64,000 nucleotides of DNA from Thermoanaerobaculia bacterium. Lineage in GTDB: Bacteria; Acidobacteriota; Thermoanaerobaculia; UBA5066; Gp7-AA6. The stretch spans positions 2,875 through 66,874 of the forward strand of contig JBHENW010000050.1 of the NCBI GenBank assembly GCA_046261875.1. Direction: 5' to 3'. Of this stretch, positions 35,281 to 46,873 are shown one piece after another (the stretch's first letter is position 1; every line of letters begins with the position of its first letter). The notes beneath the pieces were generated by a model. It ran no database searches, was not told where the DNA came from, and saw nothing but the letters and a program-made list of their open reading frames with translations. The position numbers and the translations under genes are program-made.

Positions 35281-37578
35281 TCAGCTCTCCCGTATCCGCC
35301 AGGCGGCTACGGCGGCCTGGCCGAGCGACAGCCCGCCGTCGTTGGGCGGGACCTGCCGGTGTAACAGGACCTCGAAGGCGTCTGTCTCGAGCAGCGTCGC
35401 GCAAAGCTCGGTGAGGCGCCGGTTCTGAAAGCAGCCGCCCGACAGGGCGACGACGCGGACCCCGGTCTCCTCCCGCGCGCGGGAACATCCCTCCCGGACC
35501 GCGGCGGCGAGGGTCGCGTGGAAGCGGGCCGAGATCTCCGCCGTCTCCGCCTTCGAACGGAGTTGCGCGGCGATCTCGCGGACGCAAGGACGCAGGTCGA
35601 CCTCGAACGGCGCCGGGCGATCTCCTCGGATGACGAAGGCGAAAGGCCGGGCGGCGTCCGAACCGGCGGCGGCCTCCAGCTCGATCGCCGCCTGGCCTTC
35701 GTAGGTGACGTGATCCCGGACGGCGCAGAGCGCCGCGACCGCGTCGAACCACCGCCCCGCCCCCGTGCTATCCGGCGAAGCGACCCTCTTCTCGATCAGG
35801 TGCGCGACGCCGGCCAGGCGCGGGCCGATCCGGCCGAGCAGGTCGAGCGGCTCTCCCGCGTCCCGCAGGACGGCCGCGGCGAGGCGCCAGGGCTCCCGGA
35901 TCGCCGCCTCCCCCCCGGGCAAGGCGACCGGCCGCAGATGGCCAATCCGGCGAAAGCCAGAAAAGTCAGCGAGCAGAAACTCACCGCCCCAGAGCTCGCC
36001 GCGCGGGCCGCAACCCGTTCCGTCGAACGCGACACCGATCGCGCGGTCCGTCCGGCCGTTGTCGGCCAGGCAGGAAGCGATGTGCGCATGGTGGTGCTGG
36101 ACCGGGATCCGCGGAAGCCCGCTCCGCAGCGCGAATCGCGTCGAGGCGTAGTCCGGGTGGAGATCGTGCGCGAGCGTGCGGGGGTTGGTTCCCAGCAGCT
36201 GCGAGAGCTTGACGCCGACCTCGCGGAAGAAGGAAAACGCCTGCAGGTTATCGAGGTCCCCCACGTGCGGAGACAGAAACGCCTCGCTCCCGCGCGTCAG
36301 GCAAACGGTGTTTTTCAGCTGGGCTCCCAACGCGAGGACCGGGGGAGCCTCGAACGGCAAGCGGATCGGGATGGGAACGAAGCCGCGCGAGCGGCGGACC
36401 GGCTGGGCGAACCCCGCGAGGATCCGCACGACCGAGTCGTCTGCCCGGGTATGTATCTCCCGGTCGTGGAGAAGAAAGGCGTCCGCGATGCCTGCCAGAC
36501 GCTCCAGAGCCTCCTCCTCGGTGCGCGCGATGGGCTCCTCCGAGCGGTTTCCGCTCGTCATGACGAGCAGGAGCGGGCCGCTCGCCAGGATCAGATGGTG
36601 GAGCGGCGCGTAAGGGAGCATGATCCCGTACTCGTTCAGCCTCGGCGCGACGGAAGGAGCGAGGGAGGTCCTCACCGGCATCAGCACGATCGGACGCTGC
36701 GGCGAGAGCAGAGCCTCGCGGGCGGCCGGACCGACCTCGCAGATCGCCTCGATTTCGTCGAGCGTTCCGGCCATGAGCGCGAACGGCTTGTCGGGACGGC
36801 CCTTGCGTTCCCGCAGCCGCCGCAGGGTCCGCTCGTTCGAGGCGTCCGCGGCGAGGTGGAAGCCCCCGATGCCCTTGATGGCGACGATCTGCCCCGCCCG
36901 AAGCCGATCAGCCGCCGCCAGGAGCGCGTCTTCGCGAAGGAGGGGCGCGCAACCGGGCGCCACGAGCTCCAGACGCGGGCCGCACCCGGCGCACGCGTTG
37001 GGCTCGGCGTGAAACCGCCGGCTCGCCGGGTTCTCGTATTCCCTGCGGCAGGGATCGCACAGGGTGAACCGGGCCATGGTCGTCCGTTTCCGGTCGTAAG
37101 GCACGTCGCGGACGATCGTGTACCGGGGACCGCAGTCCGTGCAGTTGATGAACGGATAGCGGTACCGCCGATCCGCGGAATCGAAGAGCTCTTTCAGGCA
37201 CGCGGCGCAGGTGGCGGCGTCGGCCGGGATGCTCGTGGCGGCGGACGTGGCTTCGCCGCTCGCCACCACGCGAAATGCAGTCTCCCCGAGGGGCGCCAGC
37301 TCGGACATCTCCACGGCGTCGATTCGCGCCAGCGGCGGAGCACCGGCGCGCAGCAGGGCGGCGAAGCCGCTCACCGTTTCCAGGGGCCCCTCCAGCTCGA
37401 TCCAGACCCCTTGCGAGTCGTTGCGGACGATGCCGGCAAGGCCCGCTTGCCGCGCCAATCGAAACACGGCGGGACGGAACCCCACCCCCTGCACGGTTCC
37501 GCGGACGCGCAGGCCGCGCCGGACGGCGGGGCTTGCGGCGGGCGCCTCCGCAGACCGGGTCGCGCTCATGACGTCCAT
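35281..37578 (-). CDS. hypF: Carbamoyltransferase HypF
   Basis: 765 aa. Acylphosphatase domain ([14 protein letters not shown]), two Zn-finger CxxC pairs (CAACLKE...CTDCGPRYT), YrdC and Kae1-like domains. Confidence 0.9.
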
Positions 37579-38333
37579 GCGTTCGCGACCGCTCCGATCG
37601 CGACCACGGCGGGCGACCCGGGGGCGTAATCGAGGAGGGCCTTTCCGGCTCGCTCCGATTGGAGCACCGCTTCGTCGAAGGGGACCCAGCCGGCGATGGG
37701 GATCCCGCGCGCCTCACAGAACTCACGGACCGCGATCTCGTCCTCGGCCGTTCGCGCCTTGTTCGCAACGGCCTCGACCCTCGGGATGCCGAGCTCGCGG
37801 CCGAGCTCGACCGCGCGCGCGCCCGTCTCCAGCGCCCGGAAGTACGGCTCCATGACCACCACGAGCGCATCGACGTGCCGCGGCGTCCCGCGGCTGAAGT
37901 TCTCGAGCCCCGCCTCCATGTCCGCGACGACGGGGCCCGTGGAGGCGCCGACGAGCTGGGCGAGCAGGCTACGCACGGTAGCGTGGTTGCGGCACATTCA
38001 ACCGGTCCCCGCGTGCCCCACGCGGCCCAGGATCAGGAGCCGGACGCCGTCCGGCGCCTCGACTCCGTAGCGCTCCGCGATCTCTTCCGGGGAGGCCACC
38101 AGCATCAGCTTTTCTTCGCCGTCGATGTCTTTGCGGCGCTCCATCACGTCGCGGGGCACGGTGGGGAGGCGCATCGCGTCCGACGGCGAGAGCCCCAGCG
38201 CGACCGCCAGGTTCGGGTTGGAATCGCCGTCCACCGCGAGAGCTCTCCCCTCGCGTCTCCCGAGCAGGCGGGTGAGGGTCGCCGCGATCGTCGTCTTCCC
38301 GACGCCACCCTTCCCGCCGATGGCGATCCTCAC
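37566..38333 (-). CDS. CooC-like MinD/ParA-family Ni-insertion ATPase interrupted by one in-frame TGA (37998-38000) at the conserved C-x-C motif; selenocysteine candidate or nonsense pseudogene
   Basis: The 111-aa ORF (MRIAIGGKGGVGKTTIAATL...ILGRVGHAGTG*) and the 143-aa ORF (MCRNHATVRSLLAQLV...) are in the same frame, separated only by TGA. They total 255 aa. Confidence 0.6.
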
Positions 38334-38638
38334 CTGTTCCTCCGATCGTCAACCCTCGGCTCGCCCGCGGATCCCGGCTCGTGCTCGTGATCCTGCTGGC
38401 AGGAGAACCCGCATTCCCCGTGTCCCTCCGCCAGCATCTCCCGGAAGTTGTCGACGAATCGCCGGCGGGCCTCGGGGAGACCGGACTCGGTCAGAGCGTA
38501 TCGTTCCTCGGGCCGCCGCTCGACGGCGCCCAGCGCTTCCAGAGTCTGAAGCGTCGCCGCGATCTCCGGCTCGGGATAGACCAGAAACCCGGCGAGGTCG
38601 CGGGCGGAAAGCTGCTCGCCAAAACCCTGTCCCCGCAT
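38330..38638 (-). CDS. Small hypothetical protein (about 102 aa) with wHTH-like N-terminus and Cys/His/Glu-rich C-terminal tail (HGECGFSCQQDHEHE); possible metal-binding accessory protein
   Basis: Internal ATG at 38638 (MRGQGFGEQLSARDLAGFLVYPEPEIAATLQTLEALGAVER...). Position between the Rieske gene and the CooC-like gene. Confidence 0.4.
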   Translation of the reverse strand: MRGQGFGEQLSARDLAGFLVYPEPEIAATLQTLEALGAVERRPEERYALTESGLPEARRRFVDNFREMLAEGHGECGFSCQQDHEHEPGSAGEPRVDDRRNR

Positions 38639-38712
38639 CCAGAAGAGAAGCTCCAGGACCTCGTCCCGGCGCGCGACCTCCCGGACCGCCTCCCCGTCGG
38701 GCGTGGGCCGGC

Positions 38713-39489
38713 TCACAGCCCCACCAGCACGGCCGTGGCGTCGAGGCGGACCGGAAGGAGCTCGAGCGAAAGCTCGGGGCGATCCACGCAATGGCCGTCG
38801 GAGAGATCGAAGCGGTGTCCGTGACAGGGGCACGTGATCACGCGACCCTCGCGGCGCCATCCTTCGGGAGCCATCCCTCCCGACGGGCAGCGATCCCGGA
38901 ACGCGTACACCTCGCCTCCGACGTCGCAGGCGAGCACGGAGTCGTCGAACATCTGGATCCTGCGAAGCTCTTCGTCCTCGAGCTCGAAGCGGTGCACGAG
39001 CGGAAGCCAGTTCCGCCGTTTTTCGGCGTAGGCCATGTTGACCGATGACGTCACGATGACGGCGTGATCCGGCAGATCGTCTTTCAGGGACTTCTCGACC
39101 TCGGAAGCCAGAGTCTCGAGCGAGACCGCGGGGTCGAGCGGTCGGACCAGGTGGATTCGCACGGACCCGGGGGTCACTTCCATCAGCTGCGCGGCCGTTC
39201 GGTCTTTCTCGAGGAGCGGCCGGAGCCGTTCGAGCGCCGATCCGACCTGCCGGGCGACGTCGGTTTCGATGAGCCCATAGCCCTCGAGGATTCCCGCCAC
39301 CACGGGATCCCGGCGGAGCTTCTCGACAAGGCCCGGGTCGGACGCGCCGGCGATCGCGAGGGTGCGCGCGAACGCGTCGCGGTGCAGATCGAGAACGGCC
39401 CCGAGCGCTTCGACGATCCGATTCCGGCCGTCGTCGTAGGAGTACATCTCGAGCACTCGAAGAAGCTCCTCCAGCTTGTCATCGCCCAT
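38713..39489 (-). CDS. Hydrogenase-associated Rieske-type [2Fe-2S] protein (N-terminal helical domain plus C-terminal CxH...CxxH)
   Basis: C-terminus DRCPSGGMAPEGWRREGRVITCPCHGHRFDLSDGHC. Recalled resemblance to HucE/HhyE proteins of actinobacterial high-affinity hydrogenases. Confidence 0.6.
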   Translation of the reverse strand: MGDDKLEELLRVLEMYSYDDGRNRIVEALGAVLDLHRDAFARTLAIAGASDPGLVEKLRRDPVVAGILEGYGLIETDVARQVGSALERLRPLLEKDRTAAQLMEVTPGSVRIHLVRPLDPAVSLETLASEVEKSLKDDLPDHAVIVTSSVNMAYAEKRRNWLPLVHRFELEDEELRRIQMFDDSVLACDVGGEVYAFRDRCPSGGMAPEGWRREGRVITCPCHGHRFDLSDGHCVDRPELSLELLPVRLDATAVLVGL

Positions 39490-39970
39490 GTTCGGCCGCC
39501 AGGACTTCGCGCACCCGAATGGCCGCCTCGTTCACCGCAGCCCGGACCGGCGGGGAGAGGGTGAGATCCAGTTCACAGCTCTGGGGTTCACATCCCACGA
39601 TCGTCACATCGTCGGGAAGATAGCCGAGCGTCCGGGCGACTTTCATGGCCCGCGTCGGTTCCGCGAAGTGCGGATCGATCCCGGGCTCGGAAGCGGGGGC
39701 GAGATCCGCCTGGCTCGGGTGGAACACGTAGAGGGTTCCCGGCGGCTGCCCGCGGCGCACCGCGTCCACGATGACGAGCCGGCCGCAGCCGTTCATCAAT
39801 CCGAACACGAGCTCCATTCCGCCGATGCCGACTTCGAGGAGCTCCGCTCCCGGAGGAAGCGGATCCTCGGCGAGCCTCCGAACGACTTCCACCCCGAACC
39901 CGTCATCGCCCAGGAGGAGGTTTCCGAACCCGGCCACGACCGCCCGCCCGGATGTCACGACGGCAGCCAT
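39479..39970 (-). CDS. Hydrogenase maturation endopeptidase (HupD/HybD/HyaD family)
   Basis: 163 aa. GFGNLLLGDDGFGVEVVRRL and the GMELVFGL...HF region. Confidence 0.85.
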   Translation of the reverse strand: MAAVVTSGRAVVAGFGNLLLGDDGFGVEVVRRLAEDPLPPGAELLEVGIGGMELVFGLMNGCGRLVIVDAVRRGQPPGTLYVFHPSQADLAPASEPGIDPHFAEPTRAMKVARTLGYLPDDVTIVGCEPQSCELDLTLSPPVRAAVNEAAIRVREVLAAEHGR

Positions 39971-40539
39971 CCGGCGATGGCGCGGCGGATCTCCTCGATC
40001 ACGCGGGGCACCGCCCGCTCGACGACGGGAGAGAGCTCCTCTCCCCAGTCGTCATCCAGGGCCTCGACTTCGATGACGACCACGTCCTGCGGCAGCTTGT
40101 CGAAGTAGGTGGCGATGATGAGGATGTTGTCGAGGCTGATGACGCCGGTCACGGCCTCGGCGACGCGCGCCTGGATCTCGTCTGCATCGGGAAGCGTACG
40201 GCGCCACGGGTAACGCAGGACGTCTCCCGGGGGGCGGCCCCGCTTGACGGCTCCCACGAGAACGATCCGGTCGTACGGGGGGCGGGCGTCGAGATTGTGC
40301 ATGACGCCCACCGGTCCATAGCTCAAATCCTCGAACTCGACCCCGTCCGGCCAGCTCTCCCGTGCGAGGCGCTCGATGAGAAGCGGGCCGAAGGAAAGGT
40401 CCCGCAGGAGGCGGTAGCCCACCCCGCCCACCAGAAGGCGTGGACCTCTCGAGGATTCGAGCTCTGTGGTCAGGCCGGAAGCGTCCGGATCGGGGCCGGT
40501 GAGCTTCCGCGAGCTCTCAATCGTCGGTCCCGCAGGCAC
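39955..40539 (-). CDS. Second, divergent hydrogenase maturation protease-like paralog
   Basis: LLVGGVGYRLLRDLSFGPLLIERL...GPVGVMHNLDA pattern. Overlaps the large-subunit 3' end and the hupD-like start. Confidence 0.6.
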   Translation of the reverse strand: MPAGPTIESSRKLTGPDPDASGLTTELESSRGPRLLVGGVGYRLLRDLSFGPLLIERLARESWPDGVEFEDLSYGPVGVMHNLDARPPYDRIVLVGAVKRGRPPGDVLRYPWRRTLPDADEIQARVAEAVTGVISLDNILIIATYFDKLPQDVVVIEVEALDDDWGEELSPVVERAVPRVIEEIRRAIAGWLPS

Positions 40540-42379
40540 AGGTGTTCACCTCGCACGTGATGTGCTGGTCGCCGGCGTAGATGTGGGTCGTGCACGGCAT
40601 GCACGGGTCGAAGCTGCGGATGGCGCGGAGGATGTCGATTCCCCGGAACTTCTCCGGGCTGGCGAACTCCTCGAGGATCGGAGTCGCCAGGACGGCCTCT
40701 TCGTAGGGGCCCGGGTTGCCCCACGGGTCTTTCGGGCAGGCGTTCAACGTGGACGGCGTGATGATCTGGTAGTTGACGATCGCCCCCTTGTCGAGCTCCA
40801 GGTGGTGCGAGAGCCAGCCGCGTCCCGCGCCCCAGAAACCGACCCCCATCCGATGGTCCTTCGGAACCTCGAACGGAGTCGACGTGCGGTAGTCGCCCGT
40901 TTTCAGGATATCCATCCCGATCAGCCAGTTGTCGTAGGCGACCACGCACTGGTACGCGATCGAGTACGCCCGCGCGCGATTGCGCTCGAACGCGTTGAAA
41001 ACCGGAGGGATCTTCCACTCGACCTCGACCGCCGGATCGATGTACTTCGGGATCAGGATCTTCATGCCGTCCGGCGTCAGATCGAGGAACCGCCGATGGG
41101 GGAGCTTGCCTGCGAGCACGGTGATCCACGGTCGGGCGTAGGTCCCGGCTTCCACAGCCACCCGGTCCCATCGAGGCGCGGTGGCCCAGCTGTACTTCTC
41201 GCGCCAGTTGGTTCCGCCCGGTTTCGGTTTCGTTTCCTTGTTCCAGGGGTGGTGGGGCGACAGGGGAGCTCCGAGCGGGTCCGTCTTGTGGGGGTGGCCG
41301 GTCCACTGCTCGTAGTAGGAGTGCTCGATGAACTCCTCCATGCCGAGATTTATCTGCTGGAGCTTCGTCGTAACGAGCTTTCCATCGAGGATCACGCCGG
41401 GCGTCGCCCATCTCCGCTCCCCCCAGGCGTTGCAGTTCGCATAGGTGGCGTCGTAGGCGGTCGGGTCGTCCCAGATTCCGAGATCGGCCATGTTGACGGG
41501 CCGCGTGCCGCACTCTTTGTACTTTGCGTTCGCGTCGTAGAAGAAGTCCGCGATGTCGTTCCAGATCGCGATGGCCCGCTTGGCGAAGTCGAAGGTCTTC
41601 ATCAGTCGATTGAGGTACACGTTGAAGCTCTGGATCGTCACGGTGTGGCTGATGCCGCCGGGGACGATCGTCTCGGGGTGCGGATACTTGCTCATCAGGG
41701 TCACGTAACCCTCGCGCGCCATGCGGGAAAGCTCCAGACCCTCGAGATACAGCTTGCCCACGAGGGGGTTCATGTCGTGGAAGAGATCGCTCATCTTCGA
41801 GTACCCGTGGATGCTTCCCCAGCGCGTCTCCGTGCGCGTCGCCCGGTCCCAGAGCGTCGGCTCCGTCTTCTTGATCATGGCCTCGGAGTAGTCCGGGCCG
41901 GCCAGCATGAAGAGATGCATGCTGTTGTCCCACACGAACTCCATCGAAAGCGCGAGGTTGCGGATGACGACGGCCAGGGGCGGGGGGCAGATCCCGAACG
42001 CCATCTCGATCGCGAGAGCGGAGCAGGTCGAGTGGACGCCGCCGCACACCCCGCAGGCGCGGCTGCTGATGAAGATCGCGTCGCGCGGATCGCGCCCCTT
42101 CAGAATCACTTCGTATCCGCGAAAGAGCGTCGCGATCGAGCTCGCTTCGAGGACCATGCGGTTCTCGAGGTCCACGACGCTGTGGAAGCCGAGCGCTCCG
42201 GCCACGCGCGTGAGCGGGTCGTAGTCCATCGCCTTGACGTAGCCGTTCTTCGCGAGGAGCTTCTTGATCCCGTCGCGATCGATCGCCTTCGTTTCGTACG
42301 CGAACGGGTCGGCGGCCCCGCCTCGAAGGGTTGCGCCGCCCTGTGCGTCGAACTCGATTGGAAGGTTACGGAAGCACAT
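40517..42379 (-). CDS. hhyL: [NiFe]-hydrogenase large subunit, group-1h-like (high-affinity / actinobacterial type)
   Basis: 620 aa. L1 motif SSRACGVCGGVHS and L2 motif SFDPCMPCTTH (Cys, not Sec), followed by a roughly 20-aa C-terminal tail. Confidence 0.9.
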   Translation of the reverse strand: MCFRNLPIEFDAQGGATLRGGAADPFAYETKAIDRDGIKKLLAKNGYVKAMDYDPLTRVAGALGFHSVVDLENRMVLEASSIATLFRGYEVILKGRDPRDAIFISSRACGVCGGVHSTCSALAIEMAFGICPPPLAVVIRNLALSMEFVWDNSMHLFMLAGPDYSEAMIKKTEPTLWDRATRTETRWGSIHGYSKMSDLFHDMNPLVGKLYLEGLELSRMAREGYVTLMSKYPHPETIVPGGISHTVTIQSFNVYLNRLMKTFDFAKRAIAIWNDIADFFYDANAKYKECGTRPVNMADLGIWDDPTAYDATYANCNAWGERRWATPGVILDGKLVTTKLQQINLGMEEFIEHSYYEQWTGHPHKTDPLGAPLSPHHPWNKETKPKPGGTNWREKYSWATAPRWDRVAVEAGTYARPWITVLAGKLPHRRFLDLTPDGMKILIPKYIDPAVEVEWKIPPVFNAFERNRARAYSIAYQCVVAYDNWLIGMDILKTGDYRTSTPFEVPKDHRMGVGFWGAGRGWLSHHLELDKGAIVNYQIITPSTLNACPKDPWGNPGPYEEAVLATPILEEFASPEKFRGIDILRAIRSFDPCMPCTTHIYAGDQHITCEVNTCACGTDD

Positions 42380-42430
42380 GATTGTCAGCTTTCCGCTGTC
42401 ACCTCTCGTGTGTCAGCGTGTCGCGTTGCC

Positions 42431-43828
42431 TCAGGCGGGAGGACCGCCCTCCGTCCCGGCCGTCACGGTCTCCACGGCATGTTCGCGCGTTTCGGGGTCC
42501 CGGGAGCGCAAGTCGCGTTCGAGCTTCGCGCGCCGCCGTGCGTAGCCCCACCTCATCTCGCCCTCTTCCGGATCCTTCTTCCGTGCGTCATAAGCGATCT
42601 TGCCCTCGACCTCGTAGCCGTCCCGGAACCTCGTCTGCGGCTCCGCGCGGCCCGGCTTGACCGCCTGGCGGAACTGCAGCTTCCGGTAGAAGAAGTCGGC
42701 GAGCCGACCGAAGAGGGGGTCGCCGTGCTTTTCGAGAGCCCAGCCGCTCGGTGTCTCCTGGAGATGGTCCCAGAGGGGCTCGCGATTCTGATGATCCTGA
42801 GAGAGACGCCGCAGGGCGCGGATCACGCGTCCGACGTTTCTCGACGTGTGCGTGGACACCGTCGCTCCCGGCGGCTCCTTGTAGAAGGGCGTGAACTTGT
42901 CGGGGAACCCCGGCATCGTGCATCCGATGCAGATGCCTCCCTGGTTCATGCAGCCGCCGTGGTGCCGGATCGCTCCGCGCTCGACGATGTTGCACTGCAC
43001 GACCGGACCCCAGCATCCGAGCGGTACCAGACACTCCGGGTCCCCGTACTTCTTGGCGAACACTCCGCCCTCGTAGTAGCCGCCCCGGATGCACCGCTCG
43101 TGGACGGTGTGATGGAACTGCCAGGCGGGCCTTCCGAGCTCGTCGAACTCCGGGAGAGGGCCGGTTCCCTGGAGAAAATGCAGGACCATTGCGACCACTT
43201 CGGTGAAGTTGTCGCCGACGGGAGCGCATCCCGGGATGTTGATGACGGGCAACCCGAAGGCGCTGCGATAGTTCTTCCCGAGATAATCCATGAGACCCAT
43301 CGAGCCGGTCGGATTTCCCACGGCGGCGGGAATGCCCCCCCAGGTCGCGCAGGTGCCGATCGCGATGGACGCCGCGGCACCCGGCGCCATCCGATCGATC
43401 CACTCCATGACGGAGATGACCGCGCCTCCGTCCTCCTCCGGCTTCGCGGGGTGGGCGCCGAGGCCCACCCAGTAGCCCGGCCCGTCAATCAGCGAGTCAT
43501 CGACTGCGGACCCCTCCAGAATGATCACGTACGGCGCGTCGAGCTTTCCCTGGGCGGCGAGCTCGAAGTTGTGGACGAATTCTTCGCCCGCCTCGGCGTT
43601 CAGGACCGGATGGTAAAGGATGACTCGGGGGAGCCCGGGCACTGTCCCGAGGAGAAGGTCTTCGAGCGACGGATCGGAGGACCCCGAGACGGAGATCGTG
43701 CACCCGTCGCAGCTCATGCCGGCGAGCCAGAAAGCGTAGACCTTCTCGATCGGCCGCGTCAGCGACGGGGGCAAGGGCTCGAGCTCGACGGAGAGACCTC
43801 CGGGTTGGATTCCCGCAGGCTCCGGCAT
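42431..43828 (-). CDS. hhyS: [NiFe]-hydrogenase small subunit without Tat signal, with about 150-aa C-terminal extension
   Basis: ATG at 43828 (MPEPAGIQPGG...). FeS ligand motifs CDGCTISVSG, GTCATWGG, GCAPVG, HERCIRGGYYE, CWGPVVQCN and CIGCTMPGFPD. No RRxFxK. Confidence 0.85.
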   Translation of the reverse strand: MPEPAGIQPGGLSVELEPLPPSLTRPIEKVYAFWLAGMSCDGCTISVSGSSDPSLEDLLLGTVPGLPRVILYHPVLNAEAGEEFVHNFELAAQGKLDAPYVIILEGSAVDDSLIDGPGYWVGLGAHPAKPEEDGGAVISVMEWIDRMAPGAAASIAIGTCATWGGIPAAVGNPTGSMGLMDYLGKNYRSAFGLPVINIPGCAPVGDNFTEVVAMVLHFLQGTGPLPEFDELGRPAWQFHHTVHERCIRGGYYEGGVFAKKYGDPECLVPLGCWGPVVQCNIVERGAIRHHGGCMNQGGICIGCTMPGFPDKFTPFYKEPPGATVSTHTSRNVGRVIRALRRLSQDHQNREPLWDHLQETPSGWALEKHGDPLFGRLADFFYRKLQFRQAVKPGRAEPQTRFRDGYEVEGKIAYDARKKDPEEGEMRWGYARRRAKLERDLRSRDPETREHAVETVTAGTEGGPPA

Positions 43829-43842
43829 GGTCGTCCCTTCTT

Positions 43843-44136
43843 TCACGAGATGAGCCCGAGAGCGCGCGCCGCGCCGGGCAGGTTTTCGGCTGTCGATGTC
43901 AGGTGCTGCTGAACCGCCGTCAAGCCCCCTCCGATCGCTGTCAGCCCTCCCGCCACACCCGAGATCCCCGCGGGAAGGGGAGACGTCTCCACTTCGATGG
44001 CCCGCACGCCCCAGGCGATCTTCTCGAGGCTCCGGCGGATTCCGGAAAGAGCCTTGTAGATCATGGCGAGAGCCCAGGCGAGGGCCCCCAGAAGAACCAG
44101 AAACAGCAGCGCGGTCAGGATCGTCCAGAGGACCAT
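43843..44136 (-). CDS. Small single-pass membrane protein, paralog 4 of 4 (N-terminal TM helix plus Ala/Gly-rich helical domain; YtxH/DUF948-like architecture)
   Basis: MVLWTILTALLFLVLLGALAWALAMIYKALSGIRRSLEKIAWGVRAIEVETSPLPAGISGVAGGLTAIGGGLTAVQQHL... Its stop lies 14 nt upstream of the hhyS ATG. Confidence 0.55.
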   Translation of the reverse strand: MVLWTILTALLFLVLLGALAWALAMIYKALSGIRRSLEKIAWGVRAIEVETSPLPAGISGVAGGLTAIGGGLTAVQQHLTSTAENLPGAARALGLIS

Positions 44137-44432
44137 CACGCTTCCCGCGGGGGCGCCACGGCGTCGAGCGTGACGGCAATCTTTTGCGATACGGAGTCGA
44201 TGCCGCCCGCCACCGAGAGCAGCGTCGGCGCGAGCTTCAAGACCGCGCCCAGGTCCGCGATGGCGGCCGTGTTCCGGCCAATTCCCTGCGCCGCGGGAAC
44301 CGCTGTCCGCGCGAGCTCGCTGATCTGCTTGCAGCAATGGATCACCTTGAAGAGGTACCAGGCGGCCACCGCCGTCAGGAGGAGGGCCAGCCCGAGCGAG
44401 ATCCACCAGATCCAGAGAACCATCGCGCTCAT
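44136..44432 (-). CDS. Small single-pass membrane protein, paralog 3 of 4
   Basis: MSAMVLWIWWISLGLALLLTAVAAWYLFKVIHCCKQISELARTAVPAAQGIGRNTAAIADLGAVLKLA... Overlaps its neighbours by 1-4 nt. Confidence 0.55.
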   Translation of the reverse strand: MSAMVLWIWWISLGLALLLTAVAAWYLFKVIHCCKQISELARTAVPAAQGIGRNTAAIADLGAVLKLAPTLLSVAGGIDSVSQKIAVTLDAVAPPREA

Positions 44433-44725
44433 GCGGCGCTCGAGCGAAAACGCTTCGCGATACGTCCGAGGCTGCCGTCGGCGAGAACGAGCCAGTTCAG
44501 GACCGAACCGAGTCCCGCTCCGAGCTGCGCGAGCGCGCCGTTGACCTGCTCCAGGGCTCCGCCCAGGGGCCGGGTATCCGCTTCGACCTTCGCGAGGGCA
44601 TCGCGAATCTCGCGGATCGCCTTCGCCGTCGCCCAGAGGTACCGGGCGATCAGAATCAGTCCCACGGCGAGGACCGCCACGAGGATCCCCAGATAGGCGA
44701 GGGTTGCGACGAGAACGGGAGGCAC
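44429..44725 (-). CDS. Small single-pass membrane protein, paralog 2 of 4
   Basis: MPPVLVATLAYLGILVAVLAVGLILIARYLWATAKAIREIRDALAKVEADTRPLGGALEQVNGALAQLGAGLGSV... Confidence 0.55.
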   Translation of the reverse strand: MPPVLVATLAYLGILVAVLAVGLILIARYLWATAKAIREIRDALAKVEADTRPLGGALEQVNGALAQLGAGLGSVLNWLVLADGSLGRIAKRFRSSAA

Positions 44726-44726
44726 G

Positions 44727-45005
44727 TCAGCGGCCCCCGCGGGCCAGATCCGAGAGCTTCGCGTCGATCGCTCCCGCGCCCGCGGCGATTCCCTTCGCCG
44801 TCGCGAGGATGTCTCCGGCGACGGCGTTGGTCTTCTGCAGCATCCAGATCGAGACCGTGTTGGCCGCGATCTGCTTGCCGGCGATCCAGATCTCGTTGGC
44901 GCGCTTGTCGATGGACCGGGCCGCCGCGATGATGATCAGGAGCAGCGCCGCCACGATCAGCACGACGACCAACCCGATCGCCCAGGAGATCTGCCAGAGG
45001 GTCAT
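44727..45005 (-). CDS. Small single-pass membrane protein, paralog 1 of 4 (first gene of the hydrogenase operon)
   Basis: MTLWQISWAIGLVVVLIVAALLLIIIAAARSIDKRANEIWIAGKQIAANTVSIWMLQKTNAVAGDILATAKGIAAGAGAIDAKL... GAAGGGAGGGG RBS upstream. Confidence 0.55.
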   Translation of the reverse strand: MTLWQISWAIGLVVVLIVAALLLIIIAAARSIDKRANEIWIAGKQIAANTVSIWMLQKTNAVAGDILATAKGIAAGAGAIDAKLSDLARGGR

Positions 45006-45072
45006 GTCCGTCACGCGCCCCTCCCTTCGCCGATTCGCATTCTCCGGCGCGAGAAAGCGTCCGTCAAGGCAG

Positions 45073-45088
45073 CTTCGGAATTTCGAAG
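45073..45088. promoter_or_regulatory. Imperfect 16-bp palindrome CTTCGGAATTTCGAAG in the divergent psiE-like / hydrogenase-operon intergenic region
   Basis: Seen directly. A near-identical motif GTTCGATTTTTCGAAG at 47279-47294 lies upstream of the TonB receptor gene. Confidence 0.3.
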
Positions 45089-45153
45089 CGACGGGAGGCG
45101 GTGGATCTGACGCCGAGAGGTAGGATCCCGGCAAACGGACCGGACGAGGTTCC

Positions 45154-45678
45154 ATGAGAAAAGACGACGCCGAGACCGAGGGCCTGACCAGGTCGCAAGC
45201 GCCCGGATCCGAAGCCCGCGCGCGTGAATGGCTGTCGCGCCAGTTCACACGCGTCGAAGACGTTGTTTACGCGGGCCTCGGGATACTCCTCGCGGCTGTG
45301 GCGCTCGTGCTCCTGGTCGCGAGCGCGATCGCTTTCGCCCAGAGCTTCGGTGAGGGAGCGCTGCCTCGAAACGTCGTCGGGCTCCTCGATCGGATGCTGT
45401 TGATTCTGATGGTCGTCGAGATCCTCTACACGGTTCAGGTCTCGTTCCGAAGCCACGTGCTCACCCCCGAGCCCTTCCTCATCGTCGGCCTGATCGCCGC
45501 GACGCGGCGCATCCTCGTTCTGACCGCGGAGTTCCCTGACATCCTGGAAAAGGGAGAAACGCCCTTTCGGCACGCCATGGTGGAGCTCGGCCTGCTCACC
45601 CTGCTCATCGTTGCCCTCGTGGGGTCGCTCCGGTTGCTGCGGCAGCGCCCGTCCGAGGCCGCTGCCACGAACACGTAA
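45154..45678 (+). CDS. PsiE-family (phosphate-starvation-inducible) membrane protein-like
   Basis: 174 aa, four predicted TM segments. MVVEILYTVQVSF and LIVGLIAATRRILV resemble E. coli PsiE segments. Confidence 0.5.
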   Translation: MRKDDAETEGLTRSQAPGSEARAREWLSRQFTRVEDVVYAGLGILLAAVALVLLVASAIAFAQSFGEGALPRNVVGLLDRMLLILMVVEILYTVQVSFRSHVLTPEPFLIVGLIAATRRILVLTAEFPDILEKGETPFRHAMVELGLLTLLIVALVGSLRLLRQRPSEAAATNT

Positions 45679-45692
45679 CGCAAGACGCTTCC

Positions 45693-46466
45693 GTGAATCT
45701 GCCGCCACACATCTTGGGCCGGATCACGGCACGCCGGGACATCGCTTCACGATACTGGACCATTCGGATTGGCTGCGATCCCCGGCCGGTTTTCCGCCCG
45801 GGGCAGTTCGCGACGCTCGCCGTACGCGACCGGGACAAGATGGTCGAACGGCCGTACTCGATCGTTTCCTCGCCGCGGGAGGCCGAGCTGGAGTTCTTCC
45901 TCCAGCTCGTGCCGGAAGGAGCACTCACCCGGAGACTTCACGCTCTCCATCCGGGTGACCCGATCCACCTCCGGAAGGTCACGAAGGGGACCTTCCGCTT
46001 CGACGACACGAGCGGGCGGCGGAAGCACCTCATGGTCGCGACGTCCACCGGGGTCGCCCCGTTCGTGAGCATGCTTCGGACCTTCCGGCGGGAGCCCCTG
46101 GCCGATCATCAGGTCTTTCTTCTGCACGGAGCGAGCGATCCCTCACAGCTGGGCTACGACGAAGAGCTCGGGGGTCTCGCGCGGGAGGTCGAGTGGTTTC
46201 ACTACGTGCCGGTGATCAGCCGCCCAAGAGAGCACCCGGGATGGGCCGGCGAACGCGGCCGCCTGCCCGGCCTCCTTTCCGCTTACGCCGCTCGCTTTGG
46301 CTGTGAGCCGGGCGACACGACTGCCTACCTCTGCGGTAACCCGCACATGATCAAAGCCGCGAAGAACGCGGTGTCGGCGTTGGGCTTGCCGCCGGACGCG
46401 GTCAAGGAAGAGCGCTTCTGGGTGGAGGAAAAGGTGACGACCGGGGCGCCGGGTCAGACCGCGTAA
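45693..46466 (+). CDS. Ferredoxin-NADP+ reductase-like FAD/NAD(P)-binding oxidoreductase
   Basis: 257 aa. RPYSIVSSP (RxYS FAD motif) and the MVATSTGVAPF NAD(P) motif. Confidence 0.75.
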   Translation: MNLPPHILGRITARRDIASRYWTIRIGCDPRPVFRPGQFATLAVRDRDKMVERPYSIVSSPREAELEFFLQLVPEGALTRRLHALHPGDPIHLRKVTKGTFRFDDTSGRRKHLMVATSTGVAPFVSMLRTFRREPLADHQVFLLHGASDPSQLGYDEELGGLAREVEWFHYVPVISRPREHPGWAGERGRLPGLLSAYAARFGCEPGDTTAYLCGNPHMIKAAKNAVSALGLPPDAVKEERFWVEEKVTTGAPGQTA

Positions 46467-46873
46467 GGCTCCTTGAGGTATCGCTTCGGCGCCTTGAGAA
46501 ACGCGCTGCGCGTCTTCTCCGACTCGAAGAAGAAGCGCCGCGGCCACTCCTCGACCTTTCCGTCACTCTTGCGGACCTTCACCCGCCGGTCCACTGTAAA
46601 TGCCGTGCGGATCTTGTGGACACGAGCCCCGCTGACCGGGTCCGAGGCCCACACGTACTTCTCCGGGTTGGCTCGAATCATGTCGAGCTCGGCGGGACTG
46701 CAGAGCCAGATCTTCTTCCCTTCGTAGGTCGAAGGTCTTCCGTCGTTGCTGTCGAAGGTGTAATCGCCGCAGGCCACGCAGATGACCTGTTCGGAATGGG
46801 CTGCGGGCTGTCCCGCCGGTGCGATGCCGCCCAACGCCGCCGCCAGCGCCAAAGCGGCGGCGGCACCCTTCAC
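46454..46873 (-). CDS. Hypothetical secreted protein
   Basis: 139 aa. Signal peptide MKGAAAALALAAALGGIAPAG. CVACGDY...WLCSP Cys pairs. Confidence 0.45.
   Translation of the reverse strand: MKGAAAALALAAALGGIAPAGQPAAHSEQVICVACGDYTFDSNDGRPSTYEGKKIWLCSPAELDMIRANPEKYVWASDPVSGARVHKIRTAFTVDRRVKVRKSDGKVEEWPRRFFFESEKTRSAFLKAPKRYLKEPYAV

Follow-up and report, generated by a model that had tools for sequence, protein, structure and literature searches.

A relocated four-gene array of HylTM-family proteins as the probable membrane anchor of a group 1l [NiFe]-hydrogenase in Thermoanaerobaculia

The DNA examined here, a 64,000-nucleotide stretch of contig JBHENW010000050.1 (positions 2,875 to 66,874; GenBank assembly GCA_046261875.1) from a Thermoanaerobaculia bacterium, is referred to below as the window. 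On its minus strand, four consecutive small open reading frames (ORFs), here named genes A to D, lie directly upstream of the structural genes of a [NiFe]-hydrogenase. The arrangement had been noticed in an earlier reading of the sequence alone (the sequence-only reading), and all four ORFs were found where it had placed them. Gene A (45014..44727) encodes 95 amino acids from a GTG at 45014 or 92 from an ATG at 45005; gene B (44725..44429, GTG start) and gene C (44432..44136) encode 98 amino acids each, and gene D (44136..43843) encodes 97. The range of 92 to 98 amino acids first given for the four thus stood for B, C, and D, but for A the value of 92 holds only from the ATG. The GTG at 45014 is the more likely start of A, as judged from the NCBI annotation ABR576_04650 (a Thermoanaerobaculia metagenome-assembled genome), the orthologue starts (MDxMTLW), and the conserved start codon with GGAGG 6 to 8 nucleotides upstream. 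The ORFs had also been said to overlap their neighbors by 1 to 4 nucleotides, which is correct for B/C (4 nucleotides, ATGA) and C/D (1 nucleotide, TGATG) but not for A/B, which are separated by 1 nucleotide. Fourteen nucleotides, as previously reported, separate the stop codon of D from the ATG at 43828 of the small-subunit gene, hylS (43828..42431; 465 amino acids; Pfam Oxidored_q6 and NiFe_hyd_SSU_C), which is followed by the group 1l-type large-subunit gene, hylL (42379..40517; 620 amino acids; Pfam NiFeSe_Hases), both on the minus strand.

In the hidden Markov model (HMM) check that had been proposed for each paralogue, no match of A to D exceeded the cut-off in Pfam or NCBIfam. Comparison with close orthologues gave ratios of nonsynonymous to synonymous substitution rates (dN/dS) of 0.07 to 0.29 for A, 0.12 to 0.33 for B, 0.19 to 0.52 for C, and 0.12 to 0.26 for D, with dS values of 0.4 to 1.3 across the four genes and a third-position GC content of 0.80 to 0.96. 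The higher dN/dS values obtained with locus L040 for A (0.64) and B (0.93) were discounted, as they reflect a mis-assigned ORF start rather than biology. A profile search with the four sequences against 5.8 billion proteins returned 325 unnamed proteins of 92 to 99 amino acids, and the 120 matches listed of these fell into four clean orthologous groups at ≥64% identity. With hundreds of homologues of the same length and a conserved start/stop coupling, the four ORFs are, on these comparative sequence data, genuine genes, far beyond chance.

Each of the four proteins carries a single N-terminal hydrophobic segment (mean Kyte-Doolittle hydropathy over 19 residues, 2.7 to 3.4), and a second segment is absent from all of them. 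AlphaFold2 (AF2) predicted only helices: A was modeled as one helix (residues 3 to 88; predicted local distance difference test [pLDDT] score, 89.5) and D as two (residues 2 to 50 and 56 to 92; pLDDT, 82) joined by a conserved turn at residues 51 to 55 (TSPLP). The N-terminal transmembrane (TM) helix and helical tail ascribed to each protein by the sequence-only reading were therefore upheld. Lysine and arginine residues numbered 0.07 to 0.36 before the TM segment and 2.1 to 2.9 in the 15 residues after it; by the positive-inside rule, this distribution places the tails in the cytoplasm, where the signal-less HylS is also located. A Foldseek search of the PDB with the model of D gave no match at an E value of ≤0.001; what it listed were designed bundles and helical hairpins of a generic kind.

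Smith-Waterman comparisons of the single sequences against shuffles were significant for A with C (z = 6), B with D (z = 7.8), and C with D (z = 5.9), and not significant for A with B or B with C. When profiles built from 60 loci were compared using hhalign, the probabilities were 99.3% for A-B, 99.0% for A-C, 99.5% for B-D, and 93% for B-C. These profile scores indicate that all four proteins are homologous and fall into two alternating types, type I (A and C) and type II (B and D). The four had been considered divergent paralogues that arose by quadruplication; their homology was borne out, but two alternating types fit better than a quadruplication. Conserved polar motifs lie in the cytoplasmic helical part of each protein and, in B and D, at or near the predicted turn. 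They are IWxAGKxIAxNT in A (within the longer motif IWxAGKxIAxNTVSIWML), TxPL in B (the conserved turn T51-x-P53-L54), GIxxNT in C (within TxPAAxGIxxNT), and the highly conserved KIAxGVRAIExET in D. Protein C also has an H-x-C motif directly after its TM helix (HCCK, residues 32 to 35; window positions 44328 to 44339), which occurs in most of the Thermoanaerobaculia-clade C-group sequences listed (VIHCCKQ, VIHSCSE, and VIHECGQ) and is missing from more distant orthologues.

The hydrogenase had been taken for a group 1h enzyme (hhyS/hhyL), an assignment that was ruled out. Published hallmarks of group 1l are a proximal cluster with four cysteines (three cysteines and an aspartate in 1h), a C-terminal extension of the small subunit of ∼100 amino acids, a large subunit <40% identical to that of 1h, and a tri-Cys protein, HylTM4. 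HylS of the window has the four-cysteine motif (SCDGC, encoded at 43714..43700), and it carries neither a twin-arginine signal nor any other signal peptide. When aligned with HofK, the 1h small subunit of C. necator, the window protein reads SCDGCT where HofK reads GCDGDS. The alignment stops at residue 358 and HylS runs on for ∼110 amino acids (465 amino acids in total versus 351 in HofK). HylL shared 59% identity with the large subunit of locus L087, which belongs to a 4-Mb Bacteroidota-like genome and has five TM ORFs interposed between its two structural genes, compared with 43% to the 1h protein HofG of C. necator and 39.8% to a sequence labeled 'Group 1h' by Ortiz et al. All array-linked enzymes have SRACGVCGGVH as their L1 motif, and in 1h this motif reads SRICGICGDNH. 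Based on the four-cysteine motif, the C-terminal extension, the L1 motif, and the closer relationship of HylL to L087 than to 1h, the window enzyme is assigned by motifs and pairwise identities to group 1l, which reportedly dominates among the hydrogenases of some desert soils.

Among the array-linked small subunits inspected, C[DE]GC was present in 17 of 17. The same 17, which span Acidobacteriota to Bacteroidota (L087 included) and all three of the gene layouts described below, shared the motif PSGW-(∼15 amino acids)-FFYxKxQ within the extension (residues 360 to 385 in the window, encoded at 42751..42674). As this region lies beyond the C terminus of HofK, the motif is a candidate docking site, recognized by sequence, for the TM proteins.

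To assess conservation of the array and its linkage to hydrogenase genes, one genome per GTDB species was scanned with the A-group alignment. From 101 relatives, 80 loci were kept, designated L001 onward, a few of which are duplicates of one contig (L012 is the same as L001, and L045 the same as L046). Carriers belonged to at least five phyla and included Acidobacteriota (Thermoanaerobaculia, Pyrinomonadaceae, Chloracidobacterium, Blastocatellia, Bryobacterales, and Terriglobales), Chloroflexota (Herpetosiphonaceae, Thermomicrobiales, and others), Gemmatimonadota, Binatia, and "Ca. Entotheonella." Mapping of the window proteins together with ORF and HMM analysis showed that all 60 complete arrays contain these four genes in an unchanged order, with median intergenic gaps along the arrays of 3, ∼21, and 1 nucleotide. 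Genes for the small and large hydrogenase subunits were found in 65 of the 80 loci, and the other 15 were contigs that ended near the array; thus, hydrogenase genes accompanied the array in 65 of 65 loci with enough flanking sequence, which supports the conservation that the proposed comparison of gene neighborhoods was to check. The array preceded hylS and hylL, as in the window, in 56 loci and lay between hylS and hylL in 4 (L050, L058, L069, and L080). In another 5 (L004, L032, L041, L056, and L062), the protease, Rieske, and CooC-like genes came first after hylL, and the array followed 3 to 5 kb downstream of it.

The sequence-only reading had regarded the array as undescribed. However, five single-pass TM ORFs, HylTM1 to HylTM5, were reported for group 1l hydrogenases in 2020/2021 and were modeled with AlphaFold as tube-like membrane scaffolds in 2026 (Nat Commun; PMC13554262), and A to D are their homologues. 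Arrays of five ORFs between hylS and hylL were recovered from loci L084 to L086 (L084 from a soil metagenome; ORFs of 97, 110, 105, 100, and 87 amino acids, the 110-amino-acid ORF carrying the tri-Cys motif) and from L087 (98, 105, 98, 96, and 90 amino acids, the 105-amino-acid ORF carrying it). Using hmmscan, each of the five ORFs (TMa to TMe) of L084 and of L087 was compared with the four position profiles, and every ORF had a best E value of 1e−19 to 1e−25. TMa and the tri-Cys TMb both matched A (1e−20 to 1e−25), TMc matched D (8e−23 and 9e−22), TMd matched C (1e−19 and 4e−21), and TMe matched B (7e−22 and 4e−21). The CPGCPxC tri-Cys motif published for HylTM4 was found in one A-type ORF of the five-ORF arrays and is absent from A to D of the window. 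These matches of all five ORFs identify the window array as a HylTM array from which the tri-Cys motif and the second of the A-type paralogues are missing. The number of genes is four, no more and no fewer, both in the window and in each of the 60 complete arrays with the A-type pattern.

The window array and the published set thus share ∼90- to 110-amino-acid single-pass TM proteins of weak mutual identity, a place in the structural operon of a hydrogenase with a four-cysteine proximal cluster and a C-terminal small-subunit extension, and a proposed role as anchor or scaffold. They differ in gene number, in order (A-B-C-D in the window; A′-A[tri-Cys]-D-C-B in the five-ORF arrays), and in placement, the five-ORF arrays lying between hylS and hylL and the window array upstream of hylS (in some relatives, as a separate unit), so that hylS and hylL are adjacent in the window. 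The tail of HylS is also longer in the window than in L087 (465 versus 389 amino acids for the whole protein). The array is therefore of a known kind; what is new is a four-member, cysteine-free, relocated variant, its two-type architecture, the orthology map to the five-ORF arrays, and the operator shared with hylS that is described below. An exhaustive search with the A profile returned 567 clusters (50% identity) at an E value of ≤0.001, and many of the matches were ∼105- to 135-amino-acid proteins ending in CPGCPxC. The A-type family also holds longer proteins that appear to be fusions or repeats, such as P0207 (182 amino acids, two matched stretches) and P0257 (281 amino acids, four).

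A putative operator-promoter module was identified upstream of A on the minus strand (45088..45039). The palindrome at its start (45088..45073), already noted by the sequence-only reading, reads CTTCG-N6-CGAAG (CTTCGAAATTCCGAAG; arms CTTCG and CGAAG) and is followed after 5 nucleotides by a −35-like box (TTGACG, 45067..45062), a 17-nucleotide spacer, and a −10-like box (GAGAAT, 45044..45039). In an alignment of 12 upstream regions, only the palindrome, a TTGAC 5 to 6 nucleotides later, the −10 positions, the ribosome-binding site, and the start codon were conserved. The exact palindrome with the adjacent TTGAC was found in 20 related loci of the Thermoanaerobaculia type, so the palindrome is real and conserved. 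Within positions 39800 to 45800, TTGACG-17-GAGAAT was the sole σ70-like promoter, and no terminator-like site was found on the coding strand between D and hylS; the sequence is thus consistent with the single transcript that had been proposed for the array and the structural genes. The window holds a single copy of the palindrome module, even when 2 mismatches are allowed. Where hylS and the array form separate units, the module occurs twice, once before each (L004, 3469 to 3494 and 9919 to 9944; L032, 254 to 279 and 7730 to 7755; L056, 1630 to 1655 and 9924 to 9949), which provides regulon-type evidence for joint expression of the array and the structural genes.

Several genes were observed near this module. 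A YHS-domain gene (encoding a protein ending in LKEPY) ends directly before the palindrome in several relatives. In the window, the space between the YHS-domain gene (46873..46454) and the array is occupied by genes for a PsiE-family membrane protein and a ferredoxin-NADP-reductase-like protein (45154 to 46466, plus strand, opposite to the array). An HxlR-type regulator gene is found near the cluster in L001 and L003, and a TetR gene in L087.

From homology to HylTM, topology, and linkage, A to D are probably HylTM-family subunits of the group 1l high-affinity [NiFe]-hydrogenase that form a hetero-oligomeric membrane anchor for a cytosolic (HylSL)2 core. A membrane anchor or scaffold for an otherwise soluble enzyme was among the roles suggested by the sequence-only reading, and it is the best supported of them; the same role was proposed by the original authors of HylTM. 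Membrane association has been seen for high-affinity hydrogenases without TM segments, and in other systems it is important for the oxidation of H2 at high affinity. Each chain would insert with a very short periplasmic N terminus, one TM helix, and a helical cytoplasmic part of 60 to 70 residues, which in the models would form one long helix in type I (A and C) and a helix-turn-helix in type II (B and D). Side by side, the four different chains could then form a hetero-oligomeric bundle or tube of helices, with the four TM helices as its base. The assembly would dock the extension of HylS and hold the signal peptide-less (HylSL)2 core at the inner face of the membrane, where the distal iron-sulfur (FeS) cluster of HylS, or the Rieske protein HylE, would pass electrons to quinone. 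Without conserved Cys or His residues, the four-gene version would be structural (an anchor and possibly a conduit) rather than a redox carrier, and a single promoter under the conserved palindromic operator would drive the synthesis of A to D along with that of HylS and HylL.

Such a bundle is the most economical model because the four-gene set is fixed, the gaps between the genes are near zero, and conserved polar motifs lie in the cytoplasmic part. The PSGW...FFYxKxQ motif of the HylS extension, present in all the array-linked enzymes inspected and lying in a region that the 1h protein HofK does not reach, was likewise counted in favor of anchoring. Hetero-oligomerization, binding to HylS, and anchoring are what we infer from these features. 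As an extension of the model, it is conceivable, if rather unlikely, that a 1:1:1:1 cofactor-free tube serves as a hydrophobic conduit that lifts quinone from the bilayer and brings it to the distal HylS cluster, a hetero-oligomeric and independently evolved counterpart of the HucM stalk considered below. If so, the tri-Cys HylTM4 would be dispensable, and the minimal anchor would be defined by the four proteins of the Cys-free version.

Several points weigh against an anchor built from A to D. That A to D form a hetero-oligomer and touch HylS is a deduction, and little can be concluded about the assembly from AF2 predictions of individual helices as monomers (predicted template modeling scores, 0.38 to 0.50). 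The cited papers support HylTM proteins as part of the hydrogenase complex by an AlphaFold model rather than by experiment. Homology was shown to arrays with every published hallmark, not to the HylTM type sequences of H. roseosalivarius. Finally, the position of the array behind maturation genes, 3 to 5 kb downstream of hylL, in five relatives would fit a role in assembly too.

The last point leads to the strongest rival, namely that A to D are transient membrane-bound assembly or targeting factors that act in maturation or delivery and are not subunits of the mature enzyme. In addition to the five loci with the array downstream of the protease, Rieske, and CooC-like genes, this explanation draws on the general richness of hydrogenase clusters in accessory genes. 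It is nevertheless improbable, given that the array lies between the two structural genes in other lineages, that a set of four or five different paralogues whose membership and order do not vary points to a stoichiometric structure and not to a chaperone, that motif conservation reaches from Acidobacteriota as far as Bacteroidota, and that the array and hylS have an operator in common.

A redox relay, in which A to D would bind FeS or heme and carry electrons from the distal cluster of HylS to quinone, was first suggested for the tri-Cys HylTM4, and tri-Cys members do exist within the same family. No conserved Cys or His column was found, however, among the window proteins and the 60 orthologous sets, in which the mean number of Cys residues per protein was 0.05 to 0.41, which makes FeS or heme binding by A to D unlikely; the tri-Cys paralogue is moreover the one missing from the four-gene version. 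A heme- or FeS-binding anchor was accordingly rejected for want of a conserved His or Cys, and the electron-acceptor tether offered by the sequence-only reading is unlikely as a redox-active component here. Overall, a redox relay is very improbable.

Slightly less probable again is that A to D are generic DUF948/YtxH-like stress proteins, another of the roles first suggested, or HAMP-like signaling modules that neighbor the hydrogenase genes by chance. DUF948 (PF06103) resembles them in having an N-terminal TM helix followed by a helical region, and B (13.9 bits; E value, 0.06), D (12.3 bits; E value, 0.19), and 13 of 15 D orthologues (best E value, 0.0013) matched it weakly. One Joint Genome Institute record calls an A orthologue 'HAMP domain-containing,' and CpxA-HAMP and chemoreceptor helices were among the nonsignificant Foldseek matches. 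However, DUF948 scores of 12 to 14 bits are far below the gathering cut-off of 37.2 bits, A and C did not match DUF948, and neither YtxH (PF12732) nor HAMP matched at an E value of ≤1 in Pfam and NCBIfam. The genes are also strictly linked to hylS and hylL across phyla and three layouts and share the operator of hylS. GC-rich DNA does yield many long spurious ORFs (several on both strands in the window ORF list), but the idea that A to D are nothing more than such ORFs is refuted by the comparative data (low dN/dS, hundreds of same-length homologues, and conserved coupling, ribosome-binding site, and promoter) and has a negligible probability.

Other membrane partners of hydrogenases offer parallels to the proposed anchor. 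HucM of the group 2a hydrogenase Huc of Mycobacterium smegmatis is reportedly a small helical protein that forms a homo-oligomeric stalk or tube, through which a cytosolic, O2-tolerant, high-affinity hydrogenase is tied to the membrane and gains access to quinone. It was set beside A to D without sequence comparison, as a functional analogy only, and it differs in being a single gene product that forms a homo-oligomer, whereas A to D are four chains, each with its own TM helix, and would form a hetero-oligomer. The cytochrome b subunits HyaC and HoxZ are polytopic proteins with heme-ligating His residues that anchor group 1 enzymes, exported by twin-arginine translocation and facing the periplasm, and link them to the quinone pool. 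As membrane partners that anchor an enzyme to the quinone pool they are comparable, but the window has four single-pass proteins without conserved His or Cys and an enzyme without a signal peptide. Compared by description only, the two small (82 to 92 amino acids) single-TM proteins encoded in group 1m clusters of Actinobacteriota (Ray et al. 2022; PMC9561532) are similar in size, topology, lack of known domains, and location in a high-affinity hydrogenase cluster with a CooC-type ATPase; they differ in number (two versus four) and come from Actinobacteriota.

The array bears on how high-affinity hydrogenases that consume atmospheric H2 and lack a signal peptide are held at the membrane and wired to quinone. 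The HylTM system extends beyond the five-ORF layout interposed between hylS and hylL, as the four-gene Cys-free version is widespread in Acidobacteriota and Chloroflexota (∼60 species-level loci), which narrows the mechanistic options to structure over redox chemistry. The array can move around the cluster yet stay coregulated with hylS through the shared operator, and its four genes are a minimal set with which structural or genetic studies could start. As for annotation, such enzymes should not be called group 1h, and four 'hypothetical proteins' can now be named.

Downstream of hylL and on the same strand lie a divergent, weakly HycI-like gene (40539..39955; 194 amino acids; Pfam score of 23.4 bits, at the cut-off), a HycI/HupD protease gene (39970..39479; 163 amino acids; 57 bits), the gene for the Rieske protein HylE (39489..38713, Pfam scan), an ORF of ∼108 amino acids from the ORF list, and a CooC/CbiA-like ATPase gene (38333..37566; Pfam scan and ORF list), with hypF next. 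The order of these accessory genes (37566 to 40539) is identical in L001 and L003, in which the pair of HycI-type endopeptidase paralogues after hylL is also kept.

The CooC/CbiA-like gene contains a single in-frame TGA (38000..37998) and is currently annotated as two ORFs of 111 and 143 amino acids. The TGA aligns with the first Cys of a CxC motif (GTG-*-MC in the window and GSG-C-MC in the Bacteroidota homologue of L087). Across 58 loci, including the window, the codon at this site was TGA in 55, TGC or TGT in 3, and TAA or TAG in none. A 5-bp hairpin with the loop CGUGC lies 15 nucleotides downstream of the TGA (about 37969 to 37983), and compensatory double changes were seen in 4 of its 5 pairs. 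With a UGA conserved at the Cys position of CxC and a compensated hairpin downstream, the CooC-like protein is a candidate selenocysteine (UxC) protein with a bacterial selenocysteine insertion sequence (SECIS)-like element. A search of the window and of 39 loci revealed no selenocysteine tRNA, sel genes were likewise not found in those sequences, and an Rfam scan of 37 to 46 kb gave nothing relevant. No description of a CooC selenoprotein was found in the literature searched, and the UGA of the CooC-like gene may be more novel than the array itself. In Pyrinomonadaceae and Chloracidobacterium loci (e.g., L010, 11195 to 12073), the CooC-like gene with its in-frame TGA is inserted between D and hylS, which accounts for the ∼1-kb gap between these two genes there.

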